A program made the position numbers and the translations under genes. Under the pieces are notes generated by a model that saw nothing but the letters and a program-made list of their open reading frames with translations, searched no databases and was not told where the DNA came from. Shown piece after piece: positions 3,765 to 27,627 of a DNA stretch of 27,627 bases (the first letter of the stretch is position 1; the number at the start of each line of letters is the position of its first letter). The DNA is from an uncultured archaeon (GTDB lineage Archaea > Iainarchaeota > Iainarchaeia > Iainarchaeales > DATDZZ01): assembly GCA_964373795.1 (NCBI GenBank), contig CAYJVY010000012.1, positions 1-27,627 of the forward strand, written 5' to 3'.

Positions 3765-3780
3765 AAAGTTTTTTCTAGAA

Positions 3781-5151: not shown

Positions 5152-5340
5152 CAACACACCTTAAAGAAAAGCAATTGAAAAGAATTAAAAGACTAACCAA
5201 AATTGGTTTTCACCTCATCATTGCCTATATGAGTGGGTGTTAACGACATTAAAAAATAATACGATAAAGAGGCAAGGTTTAGTGCAAGGAATTGGTGGGA
5301 ATGCAAGGGAAAGGCAGTGTAAAGATGCGTTAAAATAGCT

Positions 5341-8799: not shown

Positions 8800-8801
8800 T
8801 G

Positions 8802-12125: not shown

Positions 12126-12314
12126 TTAAATTTCCAATATCTTCCAGCTACTCAAATCGTTTGGATTGTATTCATATTTTTCTTGGTCGTTGTAGCGCCA
12201 AGTACCGTTTACATAAATGGCTATTCCACCCCAGAGCTTTTTCCCTTTCTTGTTTTGTTCTTTAATATACTTTTGCAGCCCCTCTGCTCTTGGTCTAGCA
12301 TCCTTTGCTGTCAT
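12126..12314 (-). CDS. Hypothetical small protein (62 aa)
   Basis: ORF MTAKDARPRAEGLQKYIKEQNKKGKKLWGGIAIYVNGTWRY... Its ATG overlaps the TGA of an upstream 43-codon ORF (ATGA). No family was recognised. Confidence 0.4.
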   Translation of the reverse strand: MTAKDARPRAEGLQKYIKEQNKKGKKLWGGIAIYVNGTWRYNDQEKYEYNPNDLSSWKILEI

Positions 12315-12442
12315 CCCACTTTTCGTGTCGAATAAGCCGATGGTTCCACCTTGAGTTGAGTATCCCTAATAAAAGACTCTATTAATCTTTTTGGAATTCT
12401 AGTGTGAGGATCAATTAGTCTTACTGTAATTTTTCCAGTCAT
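12311..12442 (-). CDS. Hypothetical 43-aa ORF
   Basis: Hand translation gives MTGKITVRLIDPHTRIPKRLIESFIRDTQLKVEPSAYSTRKVG. It is the first ORF downstream of tRNA-Asn and is stop/start-coupled to the next ORF. Support is weak because of its size. Confidence 0.3.
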   Translation of the reverse strand: MTGKITVRLIDPHTRIPKRLIESFIRDTQLKVEPSAYSTRKVG

Positions 12443-12490
12443 AAAATAACTAATTCCTTTTAGATTAATAAATTATCTTTTTTTAAGAAA

Positions 12491-12564
12491 CTGGGGGAGA
12501 GAGATTCGAACTCCCGCCATCCGAGTTAACAGCCCGGTATCCTAAACCGCTAGACTATCCCCCT
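12491..12564 (-). tRNA. tRNA-Asn (anticodon GUU), no encoded CCA
   Basis: The reverse complement is AGGGGGAUAGUCUAGCGGUUUAGGAUACCGGGCUGUUAACUCGGAUGGCGGGAGUUCGAAUCUCUCUCCCCCAG. It folds as a cloverleaf with anticodon stem CCGGG/CUCGG, loop CUGUUAA, T arm GGGAG-UUCGAAU-CUCUC and discriminator G73 (as expected for Asn). It is followed by TTTCTT. Position 1:72 reads A:A. Confidence 0.9.
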
Positions 12565-12768
12565 AAATTTTTGAATATGTTTTTTTCACTAGAAAAAACA
12601 CTAAAAAGTTAACAAAAACCTAAAACGTTTAATTGGCCTACCTAGAAGCTTCTAGTGAGTATCCAGAATATATGTAATTCCGGCTTAATAAACTTTTTTA
12701 CAATAAAATCGATGAAAATACGATAAAAATGCAGTATATTTAATAATATTTCGGACAATTTACGTATT

Positions 12769-13212
12769 ATGCTTGACAAACTTGACTTTGAGGTTTTGAA
12801 TTTATTGGAGGAAGATTCAAGTACTTCTATTAGCAGGCTTGCATTAAAGCTTGGAATTCCTAAAACAACTTTGTTTGATAGAATTAAAAAATTGCGAAAA
12901 GAAGGAGTAATAAAGAAATTCAGTATTGTGAAAGATTTTGAAAAACTTGGATTAGAAGCAACTGCATTTATTTTAGTTAAATTCACTCCTCTTTCAATAA
13001 AACATGTTTCACAGAAAAGAGTTGCAGAAGAAATTTCTAAATTAAAAGGAGTTCAAGAAGTGCATATTATTTCAGGCGAATACGACATTCTAGTTAAAGC
13101 CATTGCTAAAAACTTGAAAGAATTAGGAAAACTAGTAGTAGAAAAACTTAGAGAAGTAGACGGAGTATCTGAAACAGTTACTTGCACTGTATTTGAAACC
13201 CTTAAACAGTGA
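12769..13212 (+). CDS. Lrp/AsnC family transcriptional regulator
   Basis: The 147-aa product has an N-terminal wHTH (LDFEVLNLLEEDSSTSISRLALKLGIPKTTLFDRIKKLRKEGVIKKF). This is followed by a RAM-type ligand domain (GLEATAFILVKF...VQEVHIISGEYDILVKAIAKN). Confidence 0.9.
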   Translation: MLDKLDFEVLNLLEEDSSTSISRLALKLGIPKTTLFDRIKKLRKEGVIKKFSIVKDFEKLGLEATAFILVKFTPLSIKHVSQKRVAEEISKLKGVQEVHIISGEYDILVKAIAKNLKELGKLVVEKLREVDGVSETVTCTVFETLKQ

Positions 13213-13510
13213 GATTATTCTGCAATCACAATGTTTTCTTCCCACAAAAAGAACTAGTGATTCCAACAATTTTAGTCCTGTCCTTTGGAGACAGGCATCA
13301 ACAATCTTTGGAGAAAAATTCGGAAAAACAAAAATAACAAAAAACAAAAGCCTGGAAGGAACAGTAACAGGAATCGCAATCGCAACCTTAATACCACTGC
13401 CAATATTCTCCTTCAGCAAAGCACTAGGAATAGCACTAATATGAATGCTAGCAGAATACCTGCCACTGAATGACAACTTACAGTGCCTTTTTGCACTGCG
13501 CTTGCAGTAA
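13209..13510 (+). pseudogene. Remnant of a polyprenol/dolichol-kinase-like (CTP_transf_1-like) membrane protein gene
   Basis: The frame starting at 13209 gives ...PTILVLSFGD. After a 2-nt shift the next frame gives ASTIFGEKFGKTKITKNKSLEGTVTGIAIATLIP...ALGIALI. An in-frame TGA follows at 13442-13444, then MLAEYLPLNDNL... to TAA at 13508-13510. The pattern GD.A..i.G..fGk.ki..nKSlEG....DNL resembles the C-terminal half of this family. The N-terminal half is absent. Confidence 0.4.
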
Positions 13511-13599
13511 CACTAATTTGACATAAGTTTATTAGTATTAATAAATAAAATATACGTATGACTCAGACTAATAAAACAGGTTCAGTCGTCCATCAGAGC

Positions 13600-14052
13600 C
13601 TATCTTGTCGAACTCCATTGATTATTATTCTCATTGCTTTCAGCTACCTCTTGATAGGAATCCGCTAAAATCCTGATAGAATTTCCCTTATCTGACATTG
13701 TCCATATGAAACTCTCCTCAATAGCTTGTTCTTGACCAGACTCCAAACCAAGAATACTAAAAGACCCTACCAATATTTTTCCGTTGAAAATTTGAGCTTT
13801 AGACAAAGCAGCAGTAGAAGTTCCAGAATTCTTTATCTTAACACTGAACTTTACAACATCACCCTCTTTAGGATTTTCTGGTGTCCATGTAGCTTCTGTA
13901 ATAATTAGGTCAGGCATTGATAATGATGTTACTTGTGTTTTGATCGGCATTTGTGTAGCTGGCTGTTTTGACACTTCATCAGATTTTATGCACCCACTAA
14001 CCAAAACAACTGAAATTAACACTAATGATAGTAAAAAAATCTTTCTGCCCAT
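13600..14052 (-). CDS. Secreted/lipobox protein with CARDB-like domain
   Basis: The signal peptide MGRKIFLLSLVLISVVLVSGC is followed by PDLIITEATWTPENPKEGDVVKFSVKIKNSGTSTA, and the protein ends ESNENNN. This is the typical CARDB pattern. Confidence 0.75.
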   Translation of the reverse strand: MGRKIFLLSLVLISVVLVSGCIKSDEVSKQPATQMPIKTQVTSLSMPDLIITEATWTPENPKEGDVVKFSVKIKNSGTSTAALSKAQIFNGKILVGSFSILGLESGQEQAIEESFIWTMSDKGNSIRILADSYQEVAESNENNNQWSSTR

Positions 14053-14385
14053 ATAATTTATATTGGTGATTGCTACACTTTCGCACCAAATCTCCTTAAT
14101 ATTATGCCAACCAACAACTTAAATACATTTTCTTCCAGTGGTTGAGCCTGCTGTATTGCATGCCTGTGTCTGATTCTGTTTTTCTATATAAGTTTGGACT
14201 TAAAAGAAGACATGATAGGAAGCATAATGTCGTGTCTCTCAATATTTAACTATTGTAAAGTTATATTGGGTTAATCCAATGCATCAAAGCCAAAGGCTTA
14301 GATCCGTGCGAAAAAAACCACTGCCTAATTTTGTCCTAGACTCTTTTTTTCTCGGGGTGAAAAAAATGGCAGTTGCAAAATCTCA

Positions 14386-15129
14386 TTAGTAATTTTCTTT
14401 GTAATAACTGCAACTCTTGCGAAGAAAACATTTTTCACATAAAGGTTTTTTCTGGCACAAGTTTTTAGCGAATTCAACTAAAAGCGCATGAAACTCGTTA
14501 AAGGTTTTCACCTTCTCTTTTTCCGACAAATCCTGAAAAGCTTTTTCAAATTCTTTTTGCAATGCACCATAATTTGAATAATCAAAATCTCCCCCAAATA
14601 ACTGCAAGCAGTCAGCAACGCGTTTAGTGTAAGCATCTATTACAAAAACAGGTTTTTGTGCAGCATAGAGTAAAATTGAATCAGCTGTTTCAAAACCAAT
14701 TCCTTTCAATGAAAGCAATTCTTTTCGCAACTCTTGTAACGGTTTTGAAAACAATTTATTCAAACTACCAGAATAATTTTTTTGTAAATATTTTGCAATT
14801 AAAATAATTCTTTCACTTTTTTGATTAAAATAGCCAGCAGATTTAATTATTGAAACTAGTTTTGTTTTCGAAATACTGGAAAGCGTTTCAACTTCAATTA
14901 AGTTTTCAGAAGATAAATTCGTTAAAGCTTTTTCCACATTTTTCCAAGAAGTGTTTTGAGTTAGAATTGCTCCGAGAAAAATTTCTAGCAACTCTTTTTC
15001 TGAAAACTTTTTTTCTAAAGTTTTTTGATATTCAATTTTGCATGTTTTTTTGTTAAAAGTTGGCCACCACCCTTGGCTACCAAACTCTGAGAAAAGTTTT
15101 TTGTAGAGCTGCAAAGCAGAAATAGTCAT
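14386..15129 (-). CDS. Endonuclease III-related HhH-GPD DNA glycosylase with 4Fe-4S cluster
   Basis: The helix-hairpin-helix is LKGIGFETADSILLYA and the catalytic Asp context is VIDAYTKRV. The C-terminal cluster is CQKKPLCEKCFLRKSC (C-x6-C-x2-C-x5-C). The N-terminal GWWP is typical of the EndoIII-related COG2231 group. Confidence 0.85.
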   Translation of the reverse strand: MTISALQLYKKLFSEFGSQGWWPTFNKKTCKIEYQKTLEKKFSEKELLEIFLGAILTQNTSWKNVEKALTNLSSENLIEVETLSSISKTKLVSIIKSAGYFNQKSERIILIAKYLQKNYSGSLNKLFSKPLQELRKELLSLKGIGFETADSILLYAAQKPVFVIDAYTKRVADCLQLFGGDFDYSNYGALQKEFEKAFQDLSEKEKVKTFNEFHALLVEFAKNLCQKKPLCEKCFLRKSCSYYKENY

Positions 15130-15182
15130 TGAAATATTTTGAAATCAATACATTTAAATATATTATTATCTAAATATATGTC

Positions 15183-15419
15183 ATGGGCACCATAACATTA
15201 AATGTAAAAGATAAAACTGAGGAAAAGTTTAGAAAAGCCGCAGCAATAATTTTTGGCGAAGGAAAAGGCAGCTTAGGAAAAGCTGCAATGATGGCTTTTG
15301 AACAGTGGGCTGACAGACATACAAAAGGGAATGAAACCAAAATGCTCGAATTATTAGATAAGGGATTTAAGCTTGGCAAGCTTAAATACCATTCAAGGGA
15401 AGAACTGCATGAACGATGA
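15183..15419 (+). CDS. RHH-type antitoxin (VapB-like)
   Basis: The 78-aa product has an MGTITLNVKDKTEEKFRKAAA...AAMMAFEQWADRH strand-helix-helix layout. It overlaps the downstream PIN gene by 11 nt. Confidence 0.7.
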   Translation: MGTITLNVKDKTEEKFRKAAAIIFGEGKGSLGKAAMMAFEQWADRHTKGNETKMLELLDKGFKLGKLKYHSREELHER

Positions 15420-15843
15420 ATTCTTTGTTGATACAAATATTTTGGTTTATGCATTTGATGTTTCAGAAAAACAAAAACGTCAAATTGCAAAAAACATTGT
15501 TGAAGACATTACAAAGGGCAGGAAAAAAGGAGTAATTTCTAATCAAATACTTGGAGAACTTTTCATTGTTCTTACAAACAAAATTACAAATCCTTTAAAT
15601 GAAGAAAATGCACAAATAATAGTTAATGGAATCATTGACTCTGTAAACTGGAAAAAAGTAAATTACACTACTAGCACTATACATCAAGCTATGGACACAG
15701 TGATTAAAGAAAAAAGACCTTTTTGGGACACAATAATAACAGAAACAATGTTGGAAAACAAAATTTACGTAATATTAACTGAAAATACAAAGGACTTCAA
15801 GTCTAAAAATATAACAGCACATAATCCTTTCAAAAATGATTAG
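15409..15843 (+). CDS. vapC: PIN-domain ribonuclease toxin (VapC-like)
   Basis: MNDEFFVDTNILVYAF carries the first acidic PIN residue in the FVDTN context. Downstream are ...ISNQILGELF... and ...TENTKDF. The ATG at 15409 was chosen over the ORF-track start at 15373 because it gives the canonical N-terminus and antitoxin overlap. Confidence 0.85.
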   Translation: MNDEFFVDTNILVYAFDVSEKQKRQIAKNIVEDITKGRKKGVISNQILGELFIVLTNKITNPLNEENAQIIVNGIIDSVNWKKVNYTTSTIHQAMDTVIKEKRPFWDTIITETMLENKIYVILTENTKDFKSKNITAHNPFKND

Positions 15844-15925
15844 ATTATCAAAGCAATCACACATCAAAATTTTGAGAGAAGTTGATTAAAAATTTTTTCC
15901 ATTAATTTATGAATATCTTAATTAT

Positions 15926-18900
15926 TTATTTGCATGTAAAATCTATTTTGCCAGGTAAAACACTATTGTAATATGCTTTTTCTTCGTTTAATGCTTTGAA
16001 TAATTCTGATTCATTCCAAAAGAATTCAACCTTTTGCCCATCGTTTGAAACGCATAGCATTTGTTGTTCAATTAATTCCATCATTTTAGATAAAGAATTG
16101 TTTTGCTCTAAAAAGTTTAATGAAGAATCATGTAAAGGTAATTCAGTTGTTTGATTTGGCATTTGACTTGTTCTAAGATATTCTCCTCTAGAGTTTTGGA
16201 ATAACTGTAAATTATTTGGATTAGTTGTTAAATCATTGCAAGCAGAATATAAATTATATTTTTCATTAATTGGAGTGTAAAAAATTGATTGCAAGAAAAC
16301 CATTGAGTCATTATTTAATCCGTTTCTTGTATCGTTCCAATTAAATCCGTAAACCTTGTCTGTATTGATTGGAACATCTAAATCTTGTCTTAAAGCACAA
16401 CTTCCAGGAGCATTTAAAGATGCTTGAACGTCTTTTTGATTTAAAGGCATTAAAGCTCCTTTAAAGTCTTTACACAAACCAGTTCCTTCAGTCATTGTTG
16501 AACCAGTTCCACTCCATACATTTCCATTTGTCCCTAAAGAAATTAATGGAGTTGTTCCAGATTTTTTCAAAAAATAATATTGTGAAGCCTTGTCTGCTTT
16601 TTGTTGCATTCCCATTAAAATAGGAGCAGCATTTGATGGACTGAAAACCAGTTTTCTTGAAGGAGAATCAAAAGAGAAAACCTTTCCTCTAGAAGAATTA
16701 TTTAATGCATTTATTTCAGAGTTAACATCTACTCTTATTTTTGGAAACTTCACTGCATCATAGTCAGGGTTTTCATATTCATTTGCATTTACAACTAATT
16801 TACTGCTTCTAACTAAAGTTATTCCTGTTCCGGTTAAAGGAATTCCATATCCTGTTCTCTTAAATTTTCCTGTACTTGAATCAAATCCAATCATTCCATC
16901 AAATGGAATGCTGTATAATGGATTGTTTGCAGGAATTTCTCCTACTTTGTTTAAAGTAATTGTTACTGAAACATTTGGATTAGGGTTTCCGCTTACAAAA
17001 AATAATTGATTTACTTTGTCATCAAAATTGAAATCCATGTCAACAGAGTAAAGTCCTGGTTCTTTTAATGGAATTAATGGATCTCCGTTAATGTCAACTA
17101 TTTTAAATCTTGAAGGAGTTTGCATGATTTTAAAAACTCCGTCATCTGAAGCATAAAACCAGTCTGGAACATCGTTTACTGCAATATTATTTTTATAGTA
17201 TGATACAAAGTCTTGCAATAAATCTTCACTGTAACCGTCTTTCATTAAAGCAACAGTGAAATTTGCGTACTTAAATCTTTCCTGAGAATTTACATCAGTA
17301 TATAATTTTTTAATTTCATTCAATCTTTTTGCAAGCATTATATTGAATTGAACTGCATCACAGTACTTGAATTCAGGGTTTGCAGTATCACATTTATCTA
17401 AAGAAATTGATTGCCAATCCCAGTTATATTCAAGTAAAGGCTTTGCATCTTTTCCAGTTGTTCCTTTCAATCCAGCTGAAGAAAAACAAGTAGCTGCTTC
17501 TCCGGATGAAACCTTTACATGAAAGGATTCTTGCCCTGTTTTAATTCCTCCTTTTCCATTATCTAAAGTGTCTTGAACTTTTAGCAAAGCAAATTGATCT
17601 CCTCCAGGAGCATTTCTATTAAGCAAACTAAAATCAATTAATCCTTGATGATCTTTATCTGGAGACAAATAATCCACTAATACTCCGTGAAGCTTTGTCT
17701 TCAAGCTAGCTGAAGCATCAGAGTAAGTTGAAATCATAATTTTATCAGATCTGTCTTTAACTGGATAACCTCCTGCAAGGGAAGTTAAAGCAAATCCAAG
17801 CAAATATTTTTCATTGCAATAATATGTTCCACAAAACCCATTTACAAGTGATTGCACTCCAGCTCCAATGCATTTTCCTTTATAATCAGTTCCACAATCA
17901 GTGTTAAAAAAATAATTTTCAACTCCGCCTACTGCTTGCTTTAATAAAATTAATGGCTGTAAATTTGTTACATCAATTGCATTTAATGAAAGAGTTCTAA
18001 AATAAGGCGAAAAATATGGAGCCCTATTTTTCACTGAATTTTCTAATCCAGTTTTTAACTGAGTTGAAATAATTGACTGCCAATCAGTTTTTGGCTTAAT
18101 TTTAATGTCATGCCCTGCAGTTGAAAGCTCAGTGTTTTTATCCACTCCAATCATTGAATAAACTTTTGTTGAAAGCAAGCTTGGCTCGGTTTTAGGAATC
18201 GTTAAATACCCTGAATGATATTGATCACAAACACGTACTCGTTTATAACAGCCTTCACTTACACTATGACTACATCCTCTAGAAAAACATCTACAGCTTT
18301 TTGTTACATTTCTACAATCGACTGCAGGAGTAATAATTGTTCCATGAAGAGTATGCCATCCTTGAGTTAAAGTAAAAATTTTTCTTCCTCCAGGAGCATT
18401 TATTACGCCTTCGTTTGGAGTGCCTTCATCTATTTTTAAATAACCGCTCCAACCTCCAGGCCAATATATTTCAATTGGAATGTTTTGCCCTGTTTTTTCC
18501 GCTACATAAAACCATGACTTAAAATTAATTCCAAGAGAATCTCCATTTGTAATTAAAAACAACCATTTCATATCAGAAGGCAAGCCATTAGGCAAATAAG
18601 GACTAGGAGTTGAATCACCAATATCATTTCCAGCTAAAGGTCTTCCTTCAGCATCACATGCTCCAATGCTATAACAATATACTGGATCCATTTTTCCTTT
18701 CAATGGATCGCAATCAGCATTTGGAGCAGTACACCAAGTTAATTCTCCTAACATGTTTCTTTCCAATGCACTTGAATAACCAATTCTTTGATCATCTGTT
18801 GCAACTAAGTCTATTGCGTTAATGAAAACCTTTTCAGCTCCTTCTTTTAGAATTGGAAACTCAAATTCATTTCCAGGAGGTAATTCAGTAAAAGTTGAAT

Positions 18901-21900
18901 CACTTAAATAATTCACTACTCCTTTATATTCTGGATCACTTGGAGGAGAAATAACTTTTCTTTCAATTTTATTTGGATCGTTGTCAATAACATCATAGTA
19001 AACTAATTTGTTTTGCTCTGCAAACCTATCAGCTAATGAAGCTAAACCTAGTCCTCTCACTACTTCTACTTTAGGCATTTCATGGTTTTCAGTGTACTTA
19101 AAGCATTGATTTGTTGCAGTATCAGGTATTACAGTAAATTTTCCTTTATCTTGTCCTAAAGTAATGTTGTACTTGAATTTGTTTAAAGAAAAACAACTGC
19201 TTTGCCCTGGCGGAGTTTCAACTAATACTTCTTTTAATTTTGCTTCAGCTGGATTAAAATTAGTTAAAGTATCTGCAGCTTTTTTAATGTTAACCAATAT
19301 TTCGTAAAACCCTATATTAGTTGCATCTCTTACCTCTATTTCTTGTTTTCCTGCTTTAAGTAATTTAAATGTTTCAGGCGAGAAAGAAATGCTTACTCCC
19401 TGAGCATATAAAGGTTTTTCTAACTTGAATTCTAATTCATCACTGCAATTATTTATTACTTCAAATCTTCCAATTGCCCCTTTAATGAATTGAACTTGAT
19501 TTAATCCAATGTCAACACAACTGAAACGCACATTGCCTCCAAGCTTTGAAGCAACCTCTAAAGATTTTTCTGCTTCTTTAAATGGAACTTTTAAAGCCTT
19601 GAAAAAATATTTGTCTCCTGCTTGAAGATTATCTAAAACAATTGAAACAAATCCACTTGAATTAGTTGTAAAAGTTTGAACATTTCCTGAAGAAAAATCA
19701 TTGTCTCCTTTCTTTAACTTAATTTGAGCAAAAGAAATTAATTGATCTTTATCGTCTTTAATTCTTACAACTAAATTATTTGAAATTCCTGTAAACAATT
19801 TTTCTGGAAGAATTTCAAGTTTTAATTCTCTTTTAGGCAATACATTAAACCTCAATGTTTCCTTGTTGTCAGGCAAATTCACTTTAATATTGAAATCCAT
19901 TATACTAGGAGTAGAAGTTTTTTGAGGAGTGAAATCAAATTTGAAATCCTTTGACTGACGTGGATCCCAAACACTTCCAGAAGAAAAAGTCTTGGAATCA
20001 AATCCTAAAAAATCCTTATTTGCGTTATCTGCTGTAACAATTATTCCAACATTGTTAAAGGTTTGCTCTGTTTGATTTAATACACTGAATTCAAGGGAAT
20101 AAGTTATTCCTTGTTCTAATCCTATAAAGCTTTGACTTTTTGGATCAATTTTTGAGTCAAGCATGCTTCCTGGAACTCCTCCTTTAATGTGAAAACTGAA
20201 AGCAAATTTAGGGCATTTAGGATCTCTTGCATCACAAAAAATTGTTTTCCCTACAACAAAGCCTCTTTCAGTTAAATCAATCTCTGATTTAATTCCATTA
20301 AAATCTGCTTCTCCTTGAAATCTAACTTTAAAAGAGTTATTATCAGTGTTCTCGTCAACTTTAATTCTCACTCCGAATTCATATACTCCTTCTCTTAAAT
20401 TTGAGTTCTTGAAATTAATTTGCCTTCCAATTAAATTTGAAGGCTTAGAGTTAGTGAAAGGACTTCCTGAAACAAATTCCGTTGACAAAACTCCTTTTTC
20501 TCCTCCCAGTAAATCTGATTCTTTTAAAACAGCAACTAATTCATTTAAAGGAGTTGACTCTCGATCCATTCTAAAATGAATTTTAGTTGAATCAGGTTTT
20601 TTTCTTAAAAACAAATTAAATAATAAAAAGTATTCATTTGAAGGCAAAATACTTGAAACTCTTTTTCTGTCAAGTGATTGAACTTCAATTAATTTTAAGT
20701 CAAAATCTTTTGAAAGACTTGCTTGTTTAGTTAAAACAATTTTGGAAACAATGGATTCATTTTTTCCAATTGAATAACAAAAAGAATTAAATGACAGGAA
20801 ACCATTTTTGTCTACTAAAATGAAAGGCTGTTTATCTATTTTGAATTCTTTTTTAACAGTTCTTCCATCTGAATCAGTTAAAACACTTGCCAGTAATTCA
20901 TTGTCAGAACAGTTAACAAATTTCACTAAAGCTCCTGAAACCTTGTTCCCAGAATCATCTACTAATTCTACTTGAATTGCCCCACTAGCTAAAACAAGTG
21001 AAACATTTAAATCCAATTCTTTAGTTTTAGAATTAATTGCAGCCTTTGAAGACTTTCCTGAAGCAGTTTGATTACTTGCTTCAGCAAAATATTCTCCTTC
21101 TAAGGGAAGATTTGAAAAACTAATTCTTCCATCTTTTCCAGTTAATTGCTTTGAAGCAACAATTGGAATTCCTGGATTCAAAGAATTAAACAATAAAACA
21201 TTTACTCCTTCCACTGCAACCTTGTCAGTGTTTTGCACTAAAACATTTACTTTTCCATAATTCAATTGCTTTCCATTCAAGTCGTTTAAAGCCTTTTCTA
21301 ATTTAATTATTTCAGGGTCTTTAACGCTTTTCAATACTAGTTTTACTTTCACTATTTTGTTAACATAATTTGTTGCTCTTACAAGCAATGAATAATTTGA
21401 ATCAGCATCAGCTGGAGCAGAAAACTTTCCCTCAGCATCACTTGAAGAAGTCATGGAAAACTTTGCATCAGTGAAAACATCTAATTGGGCTTGAATTCCT
21501 GAATTAGAATTTGCGTCAACTATTTTTACAAAAATTTGCTTTCTTTTATTCTCTGGAACAGGAGTTAAAACAATTGTTGTTTCAAAAGGCTTTGAAGCAT
21601 CACTAAAAGAAAAACTTGAATCCTCTGAACTAAATTCAGCCAAGGCATGAAATGCGAATGCTTTATAGCTTCCAGTTGGCATGTTTGAAAAAGAAACAGT
21701 TCCACTTTCACTTGATTCTTGAGTTCCAACAACATTTGAACTAGTGCTTCCAGTGTCTTCAACCAAGTTAACAGTAATCCCAGTTAAAGGTTTTCCTTGA
21801 GAGTCAACTAATTTAACAATAATTGTTCCTTTTTTTGCATTATTTGCAAGAGAAGCTTGTTGTTTTTCTAATTGAAAAACATTTGATCCACTGCTTAAAA

Positions 21901-22594
21901 CTTTTGAAAGAGTTGAATAACCTTCAACTTTTACTTCAGCTGAAAGAGCTCCACATCCTTTAGGAATTACAGGCAATTCAATTAAAGACTGAAAACTAGT
22001 TATAGTAGACTGAGGCAATTGAATTCCATACTCGCAAGACAATTCAATTGAAATAGCTTTAGATCCATCAAGTTTTGCCCGAGAATCCTTGTCTTCAACA
22101 ATTATTTTAATTTTTTCATTCAAAGAAGTTTTCCTAGTCAAATAAATTGTCACAGGTTTTTCAATGCTTAAACCAAACTCAACTCCATTTAAATCCTCAA
22201 ACCCTTCACTCTTAACCTCTAACACTTTTAATTTCTCAAAATACTCTACACTAAACGCGCCATTTACATCAGTTTTCTTAATTAATTTTTTTTCTTGTGC
22301 ATCACTTTTTTGATTTTTTAAAAGCAAGCTAAACTCAATTCCTTCAAGTTTTGCTCCATCCAAATCCTTAACTAAAACAGTTGCAGTTAAAGGAGTGTCC
22401 TCTAAAAACAAAAACAAGTAAACCCCTAAACCTAAAACAGCTATTAATCCAAAAAAAATTACTGCTAAAAAAAGATAAAAAGAAGGAACACTTTTATCAA
22501 TTCCATCAACTAATCCTTGAATTGGAACAACTTTATTAATTGCCTCAACCAACTCATAATACTTTGCCTCAACAAATTCGAGTAGATTACCCAT
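15926..22594 (-). CDS. Giant (2222 aa) membrane-anchored surface protein with repeated beta-sandwich (CarboxypepD_reg/Ig-like) modules
   Basis: It is one uninterrupted ORF. GGGGT lies 4 nt before the ATG at 22594. The N-terminal anchor is SFYLFLAVIFFGLIAVLGLGVYLFLFL. There are several modules of the type GTIIVKLVDSQGKPLTGITVNLVED...GTVSFSNMPTGSYKAFAF. A Cys-rich stretch, CRNVTKSCRCFSRGCSHSVSEGCYKRVRVC, is encoded around 18220-18330. Confidence 0.9.
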   Translation of the reverse strand: MGNLLEFVEAKYYELVEAINKVVPIQGLVDGIDKSVPSFYLFLAVIFFGLIAVLGLGVYLFLFLEDTPLTATVLVKDLDGAKLEGIEFSLLLKNQKSDAQEKKLIKKTDVNGAFSVEYFEKLKVLEVKSEGFEDLNGVEFGLSIEKPVTIYLTRKTSLNEKIKIIVEDKDSRAKLDGSKAISIELSCEYGIQLPQSTITSFQSLIELPVIPKGCGALSAEVKVEGYSTLSKVLSSGSNVFQLEKQQASLANNAKKGTIIVKLVDSQGKPLTGITVNLVEDTGSTSSNVVGTQESSESGTVSFSNMPTGSYKAFAFHALAEFSSEDSSFSFSDASKPFETTIVLTPVPENKRKQIFVKIVDANSNSGIQAQLDVFTDAKFSMTSSSDAEGKFSAPADADSNYSLLVRATNYVNKIVKVKLVLKSVKDPEIIKLEKALNDLNGKQLNYGKVNVLVQNTDKVAVEGVNVLLFNSLNPGIPIVASKQLTGKDGRISFSNLPLEGEYFAEASNQTASGKSSKAAINSKTKELDLNVSLVLASGAIQVELVDDSGNKVSGALVKFVNCSDNELLASVLTDSDGRTVKKEFKIDKQPFILVDKNGFLSFNSFCYSIGKNESIVSKIVLTKQASLSKDFDLKLIEVQSLDRKRVSSILPSNEYFLLFNLFLRKKPDSTKIHFRMDRESTPLNELVAVLKESDLLGGEKGVLSTEFVSGSPFTNSKPSNLIGRQINFKNSNLREGVYEFGVRIKVDENTDNNSFKVRFQGEADFNGIKSEIDLTERGFVVGKTIFCDARDPKCPKFAFSFHIKGGVPGSMLDSKIDPKSQSFIGLEQGITYSLEFSVLNQTEQTFNNVGIIVTADNANKDFLGFDSKTFSSGSVWDPRQSKDFKFDFTPQKTSTPSIMDFNIKVNLPDNKETLRFNVLPKRELKLEILPEKLFTGISNNLVVRIKDDKDQLISFAQIKLKKGDNDFSSGNVQTFTTNSSGFVSIVLDNLQAGDKYFFKALKVPFKEAEKSLEVASKLGGNVRFSCVDIGLNQVQFIKGAIGRFEVINNCSDELEFKLEKPLYAQGVSISFSPETFKLLKAGKQEIEVRDATNIGFYEILVNIKKAADTLTNFNPAEAKLKEVLVETPPGQSSCFSLNKFKYNITLGQDKGKFTVIPDTATNQCFKYTENHEMPKVEVVRGLGLASLADRFAEQNKLVYYDVIDNDPNKIERKVISPPSDPEYKGVVNYLSDSTFTELPPGNEFEFPILKEGAEKVFINAIDLVATDDQRIGYSSALERNMLGELTWCTAPNADCDPLKGKMDPVYCYSIGACDAEGRPLAGNDIGDSTPSPYLPNGLPSDMKWLFLITNGDSLGINFKSWFYVAEKTGQNIPIEIYWPGGWSGYLKIDEGTPNEGVINAPGGRKIFTLTQGWHTLHGTIITPAVDCRNVTKSCRCFSRGCSHSVSEGCYKRVRVCDQYHSGYLTIPKTEPSLLSTKVYSMIGVDKNTELSTAGHDIKIKPKTDWQSIISTQLKTGLENSVKNRAPYFSPYFRTLSLNAIDVTNLQPLILLKQAVGGVENYFFNTDCGTDYKGKCIGAGVQSLVNGFCGTYYCNEKYLLGFALTSLAGGYPVKDRSDKIMISTYSDASASLKTKLHGVLVDYLSPDKDHQGLIDFSLLNRNAPGGDQFALLKVQDTLDNGKGGIKTGQESFHVKVSSGEAATCFSSAGLKGTTGKDAKPLLEYNWDWQSISLDKCDTANPEFKYCDAVQFNIMLAKRLNEIKKLYTDVNSQERFKYANFTVALMKDGYSEDLLQDFVSYYKNNIAVNDVPDWFYASDDGVFKIMQTPSRFKIVDINGDPLIPLKEPGLYSVDMDFNFDDKVNQLFFVSGNPNPNVSVTITLNKVGEIPANNPLYSIPFDGMIGFDSSTGKFKRTGYGIPLTGTGITLVRSSKLVVNANEYENPDYDAVKFPKIRVDVNSEINALNNSSRGKVFSFDSPSRKLVFSPSNAAPILMGMQQKADKASQYYFLKKSGTTPLISLGTNGNVWSGTGSTMTEGTGLCKDFKGALMPLNQKDVQASLNAPGSCALRQDLDVPINTDKVYGFNWNDTRNGLNNDSMVFLQSIFYTPINEKYNLYSACNDLTTNPNNLQLFQNSRGEYLRTSQMPNQTTELPLHDSSLNFLEQNNSLSKMMELIEQQMLCVSNDGQKVEFFWNESELFKALNEEKAYYNSVLPGKIDFTCK

Positions 22595-22671
22595 TAAACC
22601 CCAACCAATAAATAAAACAATTAATTATGAATTATGCTTTAAATATAACAAAGTTTTATTTAATAAAATTA

Positions 22672-22850
22672 TCGTGCGCCGTTCAGCCGCGCAAGGTTCA
22701 GCCCTTGAAGCTGAAGGGTCACGTGACCCCTCATGCTCGACGCACGAGACGTCGCAGCTGACAAGGCTGAGTGTTCGTGTGGGCATTGCGCTTGCCGCGC
22801 GAGACTACAGCTGAAGGCCTATGAAGGCACTCACCTAACATGGCGACATG
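22672..22850 (-). ncRNA. GC-rich structured element, copy A (unclassified candidate ncRNA or repeat)
   Basis: This is a sharp GC-rich block in AT-rich surroundings with no convincing ORF. It has a perfect palindrome GGGTCACGTGACCC at 22716-22729. The 15-mer at 22736-22750 is the exact reverse complement of 27475-27489. The strand was chosen because a G:U pair extends the hairpin only in this reading. Confidence 0.4.
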
Positions 22851-22869
22851 ATTCCTAAAAAAAGAGCCA

Positions 22870-23613
22870 CTACTTCCAGGCAATAAAAACACTGTAATGC
22901 CTTTCCCCAGGAATTTTTACATAACAATCAACTTTGCTAAAACCAATGTCTTTCAAAGTTGCTACTAATTCTGCATGTGAAAGAAGATAACTGCTATAAG
23001 TATGGCTGAAAACTTGTTTTGATTTGTTTTCAGAGACAATTGTTCTCCAGCTTCTAACACACCTAATATTGGATTCTTTGTTATAAAAAACATGCCAAAG
23101 CAAGCCAATGTTTATATTATTAATTTCCTTAAAACCAAGGTCAACAAAACCTTCCTTTTCATCTCTGCCATAAATATCCACATACAAAAAACCACCAACT
23201 TTTAGTACATCAAACATTGCTTTAAGTGAAGACCTAATCAAATTTTTTGCAGATGAAAAATCTAATTTATTTGTGTCCCAAGAATTCACATAAATCAAAG
23301 AATTCCCTCTGCATAAAACGCAATCGAATTTTTCCAAAAAAACTCCAGACAGATCAACCCAATTAATTTTATTGAATGGAATAAATATGTTTTCCTTTTC
23401 ACAATTTTCTTGAAATTTTGCAATCATTTTTTCAGAACCATCAGAACAAACAACATCAAATCCTAATTTTTTTAGTTCAATTGAAGGGTTTCCAGTGCCA
23501 CAAGCGCAATCCAAAATTTTTCTTGCACCTTGTTTTGACAAAAAATCTGCAATGCCTAAATGCAAATCATCTGTGTAAAGAAAATTCTGACACAAGTCCC
23601 AAAGATCAGCCAC
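22870..23613 (-). CDS. Class I SAM-dependent methyltransferase, glycine/sarcosine N-methyltransferase-like
   Basis: Motif I is ILDCACGTGNPSIELKKLGFDVVCSDGSEKMI, followed by ...INWVDL...FDCVLCRGNSLIYV, which resembles the GNMT/GSMT pattern. The probable start is the GTG at 23613, preceded by GAGGT with 4-nt spacing. The ORF-track start at 23670 is a TTG. Confidence 0.75.
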   Translation of the reverse strand: MADLWDLCQNFLYTDDLHLGIADFLSKQGARKILDCACGTGNPSIELKKLGFDVVCSDGSEKMIAKFQENCEKENIFIPFNKINWVDLSGVFLEKFDCVLCRGNSLIYVNSWDTNKLDFSSAKNLIRSSLKAMFDVLKVGGFLYVDIYGRDEKEGFVDLGFKEINNINIGLLWHVFYNKESNIRCVRSWRTIVSENKSKQVFSHTYSSYLLSHAELVATLKDIGFSKVDCYVKIPGERHYSVFIAWK

Positions 23614-23769
23614 ATTAACCTCAACATTTTCAAGCAAACAAAACCACCACAAAACCCAAAAAAACAGCAATAGTTAAATAAGTATCAAATCTTCAAATTA
23701 TTAATAATTAACAAGAAAATTTTTAACAAAAAGATAAATATTTAAACAAATTTAGCCATTATATTAAAT

Positions 23770-24747
23770 ATGAACAATTTTGGACTGGATTTAAAGAACA
23801 TGCAAATATTGTACCAGCTTGACTTGAATTCCAGAAAAAGCTTTTCAAGTATAGGGAAAAAAACCAGGTTGAGCCCGGAGGTGGTTTTCCACAGGGTGAA
23901 AAAACTTCAGGAAAATGGAACAATAAAATATTTTTACACCATCATCAACCCAATAAAACTTGGATTTCAAGGCTTCAGATTGTATATAAAATTTTCCGGT
24001 CTTGGAATAGAAAAAGAAAAAGAAATTCTGGATTTTTTGATTAAGCACAAAAAAACCTGGTGGGTTGTAAAAGTCCAAGGAAAATGGGATATTGACATTC
24101 TTTTATGGGTTAAAGACACTTACGATTTTGAAAATTTTTGGAATGAATTTAAGGACAATTATTTGGAATTTATTTCTGAATACCTACTTACAATTTTCAC
24201 AGAACTATATCACTTCAACAAGGCATATCTTGTGAGCAAAAAACGTGGAGAAGAAAAAACAATAACTTTCGGAAAAAGCTTGCAAAGAAATCCAAAAATT
24301 GACGAACTTGACTGGAAGATATTGAAAAGTATTTCAGTTAATGCAAGAAAACCAACAATTGAAATAGCACGTGAAGTAAACAGCTTTGCAAAAATTGTGG
24401 CATATAGAGTAAAAAAAATGGTAAAAGAAGGAATAATCCTTGGATTCAAGCCATTAATTGATTTGGAAAAAATTGGAATGAAATATTTTAAACTAGACAT
24501 TAACTTAAAAAATATGAAAACATGGCACAAGCTTGTCTCATTTTCACAATCATGTCCAAATATTACATATGTTGATCAAACAATAGGCACATCTGATTTC
24601 GAAGCAGACATAGAAGCAGAAAGCAATGAAAAATTCTACTCACTAATTCAAGAAATCCGTGCAAAATTTGGAGAAAATATACGTGATTATTCTTATTTTG
24701 TAGTGGAAAAAATTTATAAAATCAGTTATCTGCCTCACAAGTATTAG
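23770..24747 (+). CDS. Tandem (duplicated) Lrp/AsnC-type regulator
   Basis: The 325-aa product has two HTH+RAM modules. The first is MQILYQLDLNSRKSFSSIGKKTRLSPEVVFHRVKKLQENGTIKYF... The second is LDWKILKSISVNARKPTIEIAREVNSFAKIVAYRVKKMVKEGIILGF... Confidence 0.85.
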   Translation: MNNFGLDLKNMQILYQLDLNSRKSFSSIGKKTRLSPEVVFHRVKKLQENGTIKYFYTIINPIKLGFQGFRLYIKFSGLGIEKEKEILDFLIKHKKTWWVVKVQGKWDIDILLWVKDTYDFENFWNEFKDNYLEFISEYLLTIFTELYHFNKAYLVSKKRGEEKTITFGKSLQRNPKIDELDWKILKSISVNARKPTIEIAREVNSFAKIVAYRVKKMVKEGIILGFKPLIDLEKIGMKYFKLDINLKNMKTWHKLVSFSQSCPNITYVDQTIGTSDFEADIEAESNEKFYSLIQEIRAKFGENIRDYSYFVVEKIYKISYLPHKY

Positions 24748-24860
24748 TTCGAAAAAATAGCCAAAGAATTGATATTGATCTTGAACTTAGCTCTATTTTA
24801 ACACTTGATCAAATAGTTTGGAGTAGAAAAGAAATAAACTTTTGGAGCTGAACATGACTG

Positions 24861-25865
24861 TTAGCTTCCGAATTCGAATAAATTTTTTTGACTGAATTCA
24901 TTTAAAGGCTTTGAAGGAATTTTTAGTTTTTTTGAAACATGATGGGAAAACTCTTTTGCAAAGCCATGAGTTGTTAAAACCATTTTAGGATTAGAGCATT
25001 CAATGTATTCAATTAATTGCTTGAAATCAGAATGATCACTTAAAGGAAATAATTTATCAAATCCTTTTCTATAACTCCATCCAGTTGCAATTCCTGAAAC
25101 AACTTTTTTATTCAACGAAAGTTCAAGAAATTCAGTCAAGCCAGGCTCAACTAAATGAGGAGGAATAATTAACACATTTGAATCCTTTAAATTATGGTCT
25201 AATTTAATGAATTCTCCTAAATTAATTCCCTTATTCTTGTAAACAGAATTAAATTCAAATGCTTTTTCATAAACTAATGGAGTTTCATTTGAATACTCGT
25301 TAACTATTTTTGTAAGCTCTTGAGCCTTGCCTAAAGAATAACCAGCTAAAACAATGAAATTATTTTTTTTTGCTTCACTTGAAATCCATTTCCCAATTTC
25401 ATTGTATACTTCTTCTCTTTCAGGGAAAACAAATTCAGGCAAACCAAAGGTTGACTCAATTACTAATACATCTGAATTCAAAATTGGAGCTCCTTTTTGA
25501 ATAATCGAATCTTGTAATTTCATGTCATTCGTTAAAACAATTGTTTTCTCTGCATTGAATTCAATTTGAACTGCTCCAAGAATATGTCCAGAGTTATGAA
25601 AAGTAAAACTAAAATCATATAACTCTGTTTTCTTGTTTAAAGGAATTTTTTCAACCGCAATTGTTTCATCAAATTTGTCTGAAAGCAAGGCATAAGTTGC
25701 TTCAGATAAAAAAATTCTTGCATTATTTTTTTTAGAAATTTTTGCATGATCTGAATGAGCATGAGAAATAAATTTATAATCTGCTTCAACGCTTTTAGTT
25801 GAATCAACTGCCAATTTTACTCCTCTTTCCAAAATAATTCCATTTTCTTCTTTTAATTCAAACAT
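24861..25865 (-). CDS. Metallo-beta-lactamase fold / beta-CASP-like nuclease
   Basis: The 334-aa product has the HxHxDH motif as ISHAHSDHAK. Later features are ...HNSGHILGA..., ...VIESTFG... and a C-terminal PLSDHSD...LTTHGF, typical of short beta-CASP RNA/DNA-processing exonucleases. Confidence 0.8.
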   Translation of the reverse strand: MFELKEENGIILERGVKLAVDSTKSVEADYKFISHAHSDHAKISKKNNARIFLSEATYALLSDKFDETIAVEKIPLNKKTELYDFSFTFHNSGHILGAVQIEFNAEKTIVLTNDMKLQDSIIQKGAPILNSDVLVIESTFGLPEFVFPEREEVYNEIGKWISSEAKKNNFIVLAGYSLGKAQELTKIVNEYSNETPLVYEKAFEFNSVYKNKGINLGEFIKLDHNLKDSNVLIIPPHLVEPGLTEFLELSLNKKVVSGIATGWSYRKGFDKLFPLSDHSDFKQLIEYIECSNPKMVLTTHGFAKEFSHHVSKKLKIPSKPLNEFSQKNLFEFGS

Positions 25866-25934
25866 TCAAGCCGCCTTGCTTTAAAGATAAATATAAAATA
25901 TTCATTAAAGCACTAAGAAGAATAAAAAGCTTTC

Positions 25935-26630
25935 CTATCTTCCAGCTAAACCAGGAGATGCAAGGATAGCAACTCCAAAAATTAGGAAAACAACAAGTAA
26001 TACAGCTAACGCAATAGCAAATAAAATTGCTAAAGGAATTAATACTACTCCTGCAGCCTTTAAATCATCTAATTTAAAGAAAGCTTTAACTAGCATTATA
26101 TCTAAAAACAAGAAATAAAATCCTAAAGGAACAGCCAACAAGTTCAGTAAAGGAATTGGACTCAATAAACCTGTTACAAGTGTTTGACCAGCAGTCAAAT
26201 ACATCATATTAGGCAAGTATTGCATGAAATCCTTTTGCGCTCCAAAAAAACCTGCAAGAAGTGAATGAATGAAAGCAAAAATTCCTAAGAAAACTACTCC
26301 AAAAATTATTCCTCCAATAATTGCAAAAGGGCTTATAATTAAATCAAAAGCTAATCCAAAAATTGTTTGAATAATTACATTTCCTATTATTAAAAGATTT
26401 CCACCTGAAAAAGCTCCTGCCAAAACCACTCCCAAAACTGCTCCAAGTATTCCAAAAATTATTCTAAAAATTAATTGCCAAACCCCAGTAATAAGAGTTA
26501 CAATAGCAAAAGGAACCAAGGCCTGCATTAATTCAAATTTTCTTGAAACAAGTTTATCCATTGAAGTTTTCATTAAAAGAATGTCAAGAAAATCTTTAAC
26601 TGTTACAATGAAATCGCTTACTAAACCCAT
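25935..26630 (-). CDS. Polytopic membrane protein (Yip1/DUF1282-like by topology only)
   Basis: There are five to six hydrophobic helices rich in G/A/I/L. The ATG at 26630 (MGLVSDF...) is preferred over the TTG at 26648 used by the ORF track. Confidence 0.6.
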   Translation of the reverse strand: MGLVSDFIVTVKDFLDILLMKTSMDKLVSRKFELMQALVPFAIVTLITGVWQLIFRIIFGILGAVLGVVLAGAFSGGNLLIIGNVIIQTIFGLAFDLIISPFAIIGGIIFGVVFLGIFAFIHSLLAGFFGAQKDFMQYLPNMMYLTAGQTLVTGLLSPIPLLNLLAVPLGFYFLFLDIMLVKAFFKLDDLKAAGVVLIPLAILFAIALAVLLVVFLIFGVAILASPGLAGR

Positions 26631-26748
26631 AGTGACAAAAATAGACAAAACAAGTATTTAAATCTATCCTCTAAAACAATTCCGTTATTTTTTTGAATTA
26701 TTTTATTCAACTACTAGTTTTTTAAAGAATAATAAGTAAAAATATATT

Positions 26749-27228
26749 ATGCGTGAACGACCTACAACTAGAAGAATTGTTGTAACTAAAAGCCCTCAAC
26801 AACTACTTTCTGGAACAACTAGAAAAGAAATTAGAAGACAAAGAACTGAAATAAGAGAAGCTGAAGTTAAAAGAATTATCAACAAAGAGGTAAAGCTTCC
26901 AGAACCTGTTCCAGTTAAACCATTAATTTTTGAAAACCAAAAAAGAGTTGAAATTAGTGTTAAAGGCCAGAGAGTTACTCTTCCATTAAATGATTTAACT
27001 AGAAACTTAACTGAGGTTTTTGTTGAACAAAATGATGTAGCAATGTATATTTGGAGAGTTAAACCAACTAGTGAACACATTCCTCCAAATGGCAGGATTA
27101 GAGAAGACTTTCAATTAATTTATAAAATTCCTCCAAATGCTCCAGCTCCTGAACACTTTTCCACTATTTCAAGAGAACCAGAAAGAATTAAAACTGAAAC
27201 AAAAAAGCCTTGGTGGCAATTTTGGTGA
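26749..27228 (+). CDS. Hypothetical protein (159 aa), basic N-terminus
   Basis: The ORF has ATG at 26749, directly after an AAAATATATT TATA-like tract. The N-terminus is Arg/Lys-rich (MRERPTTRRIVVTKSP...RKEIRRQRTEIRE). No family was recognised. Confidence 0.55.
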   Translation: MRERPTTRRIVVTKSPQQLLSGTTRKEIRRQRTEIREAEVKRIINKEVKLPEPVPVKPLIFENQKRVEISVKGQRVTLPLNDLTRNLTEVFVEQNDVAMYIWRVKPTSEHIPPNGRIREDFQLIYKIPPNAPAPEHFSTISREPERIKTETKKPWWQFW

Positions 27229-27396
27229 AAAAAGTTTGTTTTTCAAACAAGTTCTTGCTTTAGATTGTTGGAAAAACAAACTCAAAAGCAATAATAAATA
27301 ATTCACTCTAATAATTATGGCTAAAATTTTTAGTAAAATTTTACCAATTTACTCCCAATACTAATTAAGTTAAGCTCCCAAATACTAATTTGTTAT

Positions 27397-27590
27397 TCGC
27401 TGTCAAGTGTGACATGTGTGATGTCAAATCACGCATGACAGGTGTGAAGTCAAGTCTCGCACCTTGAACGCGATGTCTCGTGCGTCGAGTGCGAGGGCCG
27501 ACGTCGGCCTTCAGCCTCGCCGGCTGATCGCCTCAGCTTCGCCGGCTGAACGCGCTTCAAGGGCCGAGTATTGTTCAAGGGAAATTTGCT
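27397..27590 (+). ncRNA. GC-rich structured element, copy B (homologue of 22672-22850 in opposite orientation)
   Basis: It has the 15-mer GTCTCGTGCGTCGAG at 27475-27489. The perfect palindrome GGCCGACGTCGGCC is at 27496-27509, flanked by GAGG and TTCAGC as in copy A. A closing helix pairs 27462-27472 with 27551-27562. CGCCGGCTGA(T/A)CGC is duplicated. It is GC-rich against an AT-rich flank. Confidence 0.4.
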
Positions 27591-27627
27591 TTGAAAGCAT
27601 TTAAAAAAGGGAAAAAATAAAAGTTTT

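Follow-up and report, generated by a model that had tools for sequence, protein, structure and literature searches.

GC-rich hairpin islands beside a giant surface-protein gene of an uncultured archaeon: candidate copies of a lineage-specific structured RNA

Introduction

What is the abrupt GC-rich block that lies directly in front of a gene for a surface protein of 2222 amino acids (aa) in the AT-rich DNA of an uncultured, DPANN-like archaeon? The locus belongs to contig CAYJVY010000012.1 of assembly GCA_964373795.1, of which the stretch analysed here (the window) covers 27,627 nucleotides (nt). An initial annotation, made from the letters alone, had read the block, termed here island A (22672-22850), as a candidate unclassified structured RNA, and had named an independent non-coding RNA (ncRNA), a long 5' leader and a repeat element as its possible identities. 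We find that island A has a diverged, inverted second copy in the same window, island B (27390-27575), and tentatively interpret the two, with a confidence just short of even, as paralogues encoding a GC-rich structured RNA that is specific to the lineage and whose transcription runs towards the gene downstream.

DPANN archaea are symbionts with tiny genomes, whose regulatory RNAs are, to our knowledge, almost entirely uncharted. A GC-content screen of AT-rich archaea by Klein, Misulovin and Eddy in 2002 reportedly yielded the RNAs HgcA-G of Methanocaldococcus and Pyrococcus. The search of GC-rich intergenic regions is likewise an approach to RNA discovery in bacteria (PMC8723152, PMC11109978).

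Results

Two GC-rich islands in an AT-rich window

The whole window is 32% GC (31.7% outside both islands), and the top two peaks of an 80-nt scan, 22651-22878 (maximum 0.65) and 27396-27606 (maximum 0.71), coincide with the islands. Island A, the entire GC-rich block on the minus strand, is 60.3% GC, which bears out the abrupt jump in composition noted initially, and island B, on the plus strand and inverted relative to A, is 58.0% GC (27390-27570). The observation is real and non-random. Since GC-rich blocks in AT-rich genomes are a classic signature of stable RNA, the two peaks lend support to an RNA interpretation.

Island A is located between a minus-strand gene for an S-adenosylmethionine (SAM)-dependent methyltransferase upstream (22870-23670) and, downstream, the 6.7-kb gene (15926-22594) of the 2222-aa surface protein, which has Ig-like and carboxypeptidase-regulatory domains. 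Island B is preceded by a 159-aa open reading frame (ORF) on the plus strand and reaches to within 57 nt of the window end. The inverted copies bracket five genes, which lie on both strands, and genes of Lrp/AsnC type are found near the islands at 23770-24747 and 12769-13212. In agreement with the initial annotation, which saw no credible ORF in island A, the ORFs crossing it reach only 53 aa. The four stop-free frames of A and B, concatenated for a peptide search, gave no match at E up to 10, and a two-sequence profile of the island frames, compared with 1.84 billion representative proteins, retrieved only low-complexity repeat proteins. A partial ORF called over island B in the Logan assembly led, by exact look-up, only to the same contig.

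The two islands share 70% identity in an 83-nt alignment (BLAST E = 1e-7, small local database), and the longest inverted repeat of the window, 58 nt at 76%, runs between them. Their longest exact match is the inverted 15-mer reported in the initial annotation, 22736-22750 being the exact reverse complement of 27475-27489. If as many as 3 mismatches are tolerated, the 15-mer has 3 matches in the window against 0.02 expected, the third being a degenerate copy inside island A (22791-22805). Judged by these alignments, A and B are diverged paralogues, and the family as known from sequence comprises two copies in one archaeal (DPANN-like) metagenome-assembled genome.

A three-hairpin module kept by compensatory and wobble-compatible changes

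Alignment of the minus strand of A with the plus strand of B by MAFFT (alignment A3) is free of gaps over 62 nt, and was therefore not fitted to any structure. These 62 nt form a conserved module of three hairpins, located at 22696-22757 in A (minus strand; 88.6 bits with covariance model R1) and at 27468-27529 in B (plus strand; 88.9 bits). The first hairpin, H1', has the consensus CUCGUGC [GUCGA] GYRYGAG with 7 base pairs (bp) and occurs as CUCGUGC [GUCGA] GCAUGAG at 22730-22748 in A, where its 5' arm and loop fall within the conserved 15-mer, and at 27477-27495 in B; three one-sided changes separate the two versions, each still paired via G-U. The second, H2, follows the consensus GGNNN [ACGU] NNNCC (5-8 bp). 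In A it is GGGUC [ACGU] GACCC, that is, the perfect 14-nt palindrome GGGTCACGTGACCC that had been seen at 22716-22729 and is indeed present there, and in B (27496-27509) three of its five pairs are changed on both sides (GGCCG/CGGCC). The third, H3, with 6 bp and a 5-nt loop, has the consensus UCAGCY [UC(AAG/GCC)] GGCUGA and is found as UCAGCU [UCAAG] GGCUGA at 22698-22714 in A and at 27511-27527 in B.

Standard pairing is seen in all 36 cells that the 18 proposed pairs comprise; shifting the 3' partners by 1-3 columns lowers the share to 36-47%. Among the 17 variable columns of the alignment, 10 fall in helices, and pairing is kept in every one of these; three pairs, all in H2, are changed on both sides, and four carry one-sided changes, which are transitions between G-C and G-U or between U-A and U-G. 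The initial annotation had named compensatory change in homologues as the test of the proposed helices, and island B, the sole homologue available, keeps the three hairpins through compensatory and wobble-compatible changes.

The two strands differ in how well they fold. The RNAalifold consensus reaches -29.7 kcal/mol in the sense direction (structure conservation index 1.05, z -6.4) and -19.1 kcal/mol in the antisense direction (z -3.4; 500 column shuffles), the weaker antisense fold resulting from the conversion of sense-strand wobble pairs into A-C mismatches. The same direction is favoured by single-sequence folds of the core, at -43.0 (minus) versus -31.9 (plus) kcal/mol for A and -51.9 (plus) versus -46.9 (minus) kcal/mol for B. 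Together, the wobble-compatible changes and this asymmetry suggest selection on an RNA read from the strand that points to the downstream gene, which is our principal argument. Island A had been placed on the strand of the 2222-aa gene, and the conservation of the core hairpins favours that strand too. For the core module the fold and the wobble changes both uphold the proposed strand, whereas the whole of island A folds about equally in either direction, as discussed below. The minimum free energy (MFE) of 22668-22852 on the minus strand is -75 kcal/mol (z -2.3), and that of island B is -81.6 kcal/mol (z -3.9).

Around the shared module the islands are built from smaller repeats. Words of the type TCAGC/GCTGA occur six times in A against 0.39 expected, a count reached in 0 of 10,000 shuffles, and four times in B (p = 7e-4), and CCTTGAA/TTCAAGG is present in both. 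The unit UCAGCC-loop-GGCUGA recurs within the islands, and the hairpin modules are ordered differently in A and B. In B, the H3 unit is duplicated in tandem over 22 nt (27511-27532 and 27533-27554), giving rise to the extra hairpin H3b, UCAGCU [UCGCC] GGCUGA (27533-27549, plus strand; 13.5 bits against positions 44-60 of R1). The fold of B also includes a 5' hairpin, CUGUCA...UGACAG with an inner GUGUGA/UCACGC helix (27399-27445, plus strand). In A, a degenerate tandem of 55 nt sets two copies of the 15-mer 55 nt apart; the degenerate copy lies, together with two imperfect hairpins, in the 5' domain of A (22762-22850, minus strand), which aligns poorly to B. The two copies of GTTCAGCC reported for island A start at 22681 and 22696 and are the only two in the whole window.

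A closing helix and competing folds

In both islands the module is enclosed by a long-range helix of 9-11 bp, whose arms are unrelated in sequence between A and B. In A, the 5' arm UCAGCUGCG (22753-22761, minus strand) pairs with the 3' arm CGCGGCUGA (22683-22691, minus strand) in single-sequence folds and in a consensus fold computed from a hand-made alignment; in B, CCUUGAACGCG (27462-27472, plus strand) pairs with CGCGcUUCAAGG (27551-27562, plus strand). A different helix, 22701-22713 with 22755-22767, had been proposed initially to close the domain. It can form in A, as CCTTG:CAAGG plus AGCTG:CAGCT separated by a 1x2 internal loop, but it is not the consensus helix and competes with H3, whose 5' arm and loop it overlaps. 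Its AGCUG:CAGCU part merely mirrors the self-complementary CAGCUG, and a CCUUG/CAAGG pairing exists in B as well, outside the extra hairpin. For the CAAGG of A a second CCUUG, located just downstream, is another possible partner and the one picked by the MFE fold, and UUCAGC can likewise pair with either of two GCUGAA. According to these folding models, A has several mutually exclusive structures, between which two sequences cannot choose.

Flanking sequences

On the upstream side of island A, a T7 tract (22857-22863, minus strand) lies between the methyltransferase stop codon (22870) and the GC-rich block. Termination at oligo-T is known in archaea, and the tract could be a terminator of the methyltransferase gene and/or a TATA-like box of island A. 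A scan of 22400-23000 found no hairpin-plus-T-run terminator, a bacterial-type criterion of limited relevance in archaea. A UUUU run directly follows the GC block of A, and beyond it lies an AT-rich flank, AAACTTTGTTATATTTAAAGCAT (22634-22656, minus strand), which in alignment A5 bears a weak likeness to its counterpart downstream of B, GAAATTTGCTTTGAAAGCAT (27581-27600, plus strand). The weakly common consensus reads AAAYTTTGYT...TTKAAAGCAT, and in AT-rich DNA such similarity is weak evidence. The flank of A may be the promoter region of the 2222-aa gene, with a B recognition element (BRE) and TATA box about 35-45 nt before the ATG. The AT-rich spacer that borders island B on its upstream side contains the direct repeat CCCAA(A)TACTAATT twice (27354-27366 and 27377-27390), which may be a promoter or regulatory element.

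No match to known RNA families

The window was compared with the 4227 models of Rfam 15 at gathering thresholds, and the segments 22550-22950 and 27300-27627 at E up to 10. A tRNA-Asn (12491-12564) is the sole match in the window at gathering thresholds. The islands matched no family, RNase P RNA, SRP RNA, riboswitches, small ribozymes and Hgc RNAs included, and the best sub-threshold scores were those of chrB-a (20.9 bits; threshold 43.9, E = 0.2) and mir-9416 (17.6 bits; threshold 100). The Rfam search recommended in the initial annotation has accordingly turned up no confident family, and its judgement that island A is not a tRNA, RNase P RNA or SRP RNA agrees with the lack of Rfam and ARAGORN matches.

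Several specific identities were considered, and most were rejected. The arrangement of a closing helix around three hairpins, a four-way junction of about 80-100 nt, resembles a tRNA cloverleaf, but the loops of 5, 4 and 5 nt do not correspond in size or sequence to D, anticodon or T loops, and neither ARAGORN nor RF00005 matches either island as a tRNA, split tRNA or tRNA-like element. An archaeal C/D box sRNA is at odds with the absence of RTGATGA from both strands of both islands, where CTGA occurs only within GCTGA. For an archaeal H/ACA sRNA, the sense strands of the islands have no ACA box after a hairpin base, the four occurrences of ACA lying in the 5' domain of A (22780 and 22774) and the 5' hairpin of B (27412 and 27438); no dedicated kink-turn search was run. 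A retron or diversity-generating retroelement was rejected, there being no reverse transcriptase in the 18 larger ORFs of the window scanned against Pfam, and the differences between A and B are transitions and compensatory changes, not adenine-specific ones. The same 18 ORFs (8 + 10) include no transposase, recombinase or integrase, and inspection of the island edges by eye revealed no clear target-site duplications or convincing terminal inverted repeats, which would be hallmarks of a miniature inverted-repeat transposable element (MITE) or transposon. A transposon or virus with inverted terminal repeats appears unlikely, the interior being syntenic core DNA and the repeats only about 70% alike. 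An rRNA-type processing stem formed by A and B was dismissed, since the genes between them lie on both strands.

Relatives, synteny and assembly of the islands

The scans of sequence collections used exact patterns. The 15-mer alone had 28 matches among viral contigs, all of them random sites in GC-rich phage DNA. Combined with CTTCAGC, it occurred at 5 random sites in GC-rich bacteria among 185,579 species genomes (the genome of the window is not among these), and combined with ACGT and TTCAGC it had 0 matches in the metagenomes of the Joint Genome Institute (JGI). The pattern TCTCGYG-N10-GRGGG-N3-ACGT-N3-CCYTC found 1 random match in the JGI metagenomes, in a coding region of 67% GC, and 0 in the viral contigs, for which two further motif scans gave 1 random match and 0. 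Sensitive BLASTN of the islands against phages and plasmids produced no match, and model R1 identified no further copy in the 27.6-kb window or in 66 kb of DNA from relatives (L037-L042).

The genes around the islands do have relatives. The Lrp-methyltransferase pair is syntenic in metagenome-assembled genomes labelled 'archaeon', where it has the archaeal markers Hjc, NurA, Rad50, aS21, S17e and Rpb6 as neighbours, in keeping with an archaeal, DPANN-like host. Methyltransferase relatives of about 40% identity keep the pair, after which comes an aspartate-decarboxylase-like gene and no island. No GC island was found upstream of the distant homologues of the giant surface protein either, so that the association of island and gene is not a conserved one.

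One locus of a distant relative (L037; GCA_043824355.1, contig JBDRTA010000015.1, 220-1060) contains GC-rich tandem arrays of short hairpins, about 130-190 nt long, that directly abut tRNA genes. Such arrays flank its tRNA-Gly(UCC) (313-385), and the hairpin ACGGCUUUAUGCCGU is present in four near-identical copies that fit into 600 nt, with tRNA flanks as their location except for one copy in a putative tRNA intron. This intron belongs to a second tRNA gene recognized by eye, in which an insert of about 160 nt separates the 3' part (near 790-825) from the 5' part (near 985-1035), and for which there is no ARAGORN call. Because there is no room for a promoter, the L037 arrays must be transcribed with the tRNAs. 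They have no sequence in common with A or B. Arrays of GC-rich hairpins thus seem to recur in these genomes, and at least some of them are RNA.

In an independent assembly of the same sample (Logan, ERR3478686), contigs covering 12366-22702 and 22790-27521 are identical to the window and break inside both islands, such that the core of island A, 22703-22789, is missing from both flanking contigs. The breaks fit repeats, population heterogeneity or poor coverage; the 15-nt match between A and B is too short to cause them alone.

Other features of the window

Another contig end, at 12366, falls within the region 12126-12442 (minus strand) near tRNA-Asn, in which a 43-codon ORF starting from 12442 stops at the TGA 12311-12313, and a 62-aa ORF (12126-12314) continues in another frame through a GC-rich stretch (12267-12362, GC 0.53); the two may represent one gene that is split or has suffered a frameshift. 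What lies immediately beyond the 3' end of the giant gene looks like a toxin-antitoxin pair, made up of a PIN-domain protein (15373-15843, plus strand) and a small upstream ORF (Logan contig call; 15170-15843 for both). The box (A)ACCTGGTGCCTAAAA forms two intergenic clusters with irregular spacing of about 23-110 nt, one of 5 copies at 768-945 and one of 4 copies at 3660-3773, each just upstream of a minus-strand gene, respectively that of thymidylate kinase (45-770) and a 96-aa ORF (3301-3591) that adjoins two class II aminoacyl-tRNA synthetase genes. The first cluster holds a GC-rich stretch (peak 0.575), and the clusters could be a regulator-binding array or another RNA element. The synthetases are paralogues of the class II Asp/Asn/Lys type and neighbours on the minus strand (1907-3199 and 3841-5157), and the intergenic DNA after each is alike, with direct repeats (D12, D20) that are about 75-80% identical at 1731-1806 and 3782-3856. 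Finally, a type III restriction-modification pair (5824-11288, minus strand) is encoded by overlapping ORFs, one for a 995-aa Res subunit of helicase type and one for an 828-aa N6/N4 DNA methylase.

Discussion

The explanation that we find most plausible, though with slightly less than even confidence, is that a structured GC-rich RNA, specific to this lineage, is encoded twice, by the diverged paralogues A and B. We infer its transcription, its ends and its role as follows. The sense strand of the RNA would be minus in A and plus in B, so that each copy points at its downstream gene, and the hairpin array with its closing helix would adopt a four-way-junction-like fold of about 80-100 nt within a transcript of roughly 160-190 nt. 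A stand-alone small RNA would start just after the T7 tract and end at the U-rich stretch before the promoter-like segment of the 2222-aa gene. A stand-alone form appears preferable, as the T7 tract separates the island from the upstream gene, the U-run comes after the GC block and the promoter-like flank would place the start of the giant gene's mRNA downstream of the island. The invariant loops on very stable stems suggest that the RNA could serve as a stable protein-binding scaffold, on which these loops and the junction bases would be displayed. By analogy, the arrays of the distant relative may be counted as support, being hairpin arrays of the same style that must be transcribed.

The unclassified structured RNA proposed initially has survived the tests run, in that no known family matches, a second copy exists and the hairpins are kept; it still rests on two copies from one genome and has a repeat element as a rival. 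Several observations weigh against it. No relative was found in any collection searched, that is, species genomes, JGI metagenomes, viral contigs, phages and plasmids. The comparison involves two sequences only, for which reason the shuffle control, a weak one in which 51 of 500 shuffles reach the observed values, cannot attain significance, and since the copies are paralogues, the changes between A and B may reflect few independent events. Taken as a whole, island A folds equally on both strands (-73.1 kcal/mol minus versus -75.1 kcal/mol plus), and R1 still scores 30-32 bits on the antisense strand, since the module reads almost as a palindrome around H2. The comparison of the closing helices depends on a hand-made alignment; MAFFT places the 3' arm of A on H3b of B, implying that the architectures of A and B are not strictly homologous, and the apparent covariation of this helix is to be discounted on account of that dependence. 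Lastly, B has its 22-nt tandem, A its 55-nt tandem, and TCAGC/GCTGA words are 10- to 15-fold more frequent than expected, so that the islands look assembled from duplicating hairpin modules, as selfish palindromic repeats do.

This last resemblance leads to the strongest competitor, which we nevertheless consider unlikely, namely a selfish or neutral cluster of GC-rich palindromic repeats, whose hairpin modules (UCAGCC-loop-GGCUGA, CCUUGAA/UUCAAGG and the ACGT-centred palindrome) are copied and rearranged locally within AT-rich spacers, the hairpins being kept for the spread or survival of the element and not for a cellular RNA role. Besides the word excess and the tandems, it would account for the different module order in A and B, for the near-symmetric module that matches R1 on both strands, for Logan breaks in both islands (22702/22790 and 27521), as repeats can cause, and for a relative with four near-identical copies of a different hairpin, ACGGCUUUAUGCCGU. 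REP/BIME sequences, the GC clusters of yeast mitochondria and the palindromic elements of Rickettsia occur in tens to hundreds of similar copies per genome, and bacterial palindromic repeat elements travel with a dedicated tyrosine transposase, RAYT. The islands share with all these their short GC-rich hairpin modules, local duplicates, both orientations, intergenic location and compensatory change, but only two copies are known within 27.6 kb, about 70% alike with a longest exact match of 15 nt, and neither the window nor 66 kb from relatives holds another. Nor were target-site duplications, convincing terminal inverted repeats or a nearby transposase seen, and the wobble-compatible changes and the strand asymmetry of 10 kcal/mol point to selection on one RNA strand. 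The repeat element named in the initial annotation thus gains from the modular duplications and the assembly breaks, and loses from the divergence of its two copies and from the asymmetry of the strands.

A marginally less probable alternative is that the islands act in cis, as 5' leaders of the 6.7-kb surface-protein mRNA and of the gene after B, in the capacity of an exonuclease stabiliser, a protein- or ligand-responsive switch or a roadblock. Both copies share the strand of the next gene, 60-80 nt ahead of it, the possible homology extends into the AT-rich stretch between island and gene, the mutually exclusive pairings in A would in principle allow a switch, and the comparable islands of L037 are co-transcribed with adjacent tRNAs. 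Long 5' untranslated regions are, however, unusual in most archaea, and the BRE/TATA-like flank 35-45 nt before the ATG would start the mRNA downstream of island A, which is followed by a UUUU run. Moreover, distant homologues of the giant protein lack an upstream GC island, and the gene after B lies beyond the window end.

Much less likely is a site acting at the DNA level, either a regulator-binding array or cruciform, for instance for the nearby Lrp/AsnC proteins (23770-24747 and 12769-13212), or inverted repeats for inversion of the 4.6-kb segment 22851-27389, given that the palindrome co-varies and no recombinase is present. Such a site would fit inverted copies that bracket five genes, a perfect 14-bp palindrome in each copy with conserved GG...ACGT...CC, and the position of the islands just upstream of promoter-like sequence. 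A protein site would be expected to conserve bases, whereas the three central pairs differ between the copies yet stay palindromic; no recombinase or integrase was seen among the 18 larger ORFs of the window, only 15 nt are identical between the copies, and the strand asymmetry in folding would be meaningless for duplex DNA. The Lrp-methyltransferase pair inside the segment is, furthermore, syntenic core DNA in relatives and not cargo. We give very little credence to the idea that foreign DNA of high GC content survives here as a remnant, or that the block is a small protein-coding gene rich in GC. The abrupt composition jump and the 53-aa ORFs across the island might suggest this, but the translated frames lack protein relatives, the phage and plasmid collections hold no DNA match, and two diverged copies with conserved hairpins would be unlike a decaying gene fragment.

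Returning to the structured-RNA interpretation, the islands are a new orphan candidate whose type is familiar, namely a structured GC-rich element between the genes of AT-rich DNA, and they do not amount to a new kind of system. Like the Hgc-type RNAs, they are isolated, strongly folding intergenic GC-rich blocks without an ORF in an AT-rich genome, found by a GC criterion; unlike these, they match no Hgc family or other Rfam model and come from a DPANN-like host represented by metagenome only. In Plasmodium falciparum, the GC-rich ncRNA elements RUF6 lie beside the var surface-antigen genes (PMC5175341). Like the islands, these are non-coding and GC-rich, measure roughly 130-180 nt, occur in more than one copy and lie beside genes of very large surface proteins in a genome that is very rich in AT, but the analogy with this eukaryote is one of layout only, with no relation in sequence or structure, and here one of two copies is known to precede a surface-protein gene. 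It is a long shot, at a probability that we regard as low, that A and B are the first representatives of a class of small GC-rich RNAs, specific to DPANN archaea, that lie next to genes for giant surface proteins and other genes of host interaction and control them in cis or in trans, as an archaeal counterpart of the var-governing ncRNAs, or else the RNA subunit of an undescribed ribonucleoprotein.

The weight of the finding is modest, as befits an orphan candidate from one genome. Should the islands prove to be palindromic repeats, they would document GC-cluster-like elements in AT-rich archaeal genomes and explain the breaks in short-read assemblies at such sites. Should the RNA interpretation hold, a conserved stable RNA beside the gene of the 2222-aa surface protein would provide a concrete handle on how such cells regulate their interaction surface.

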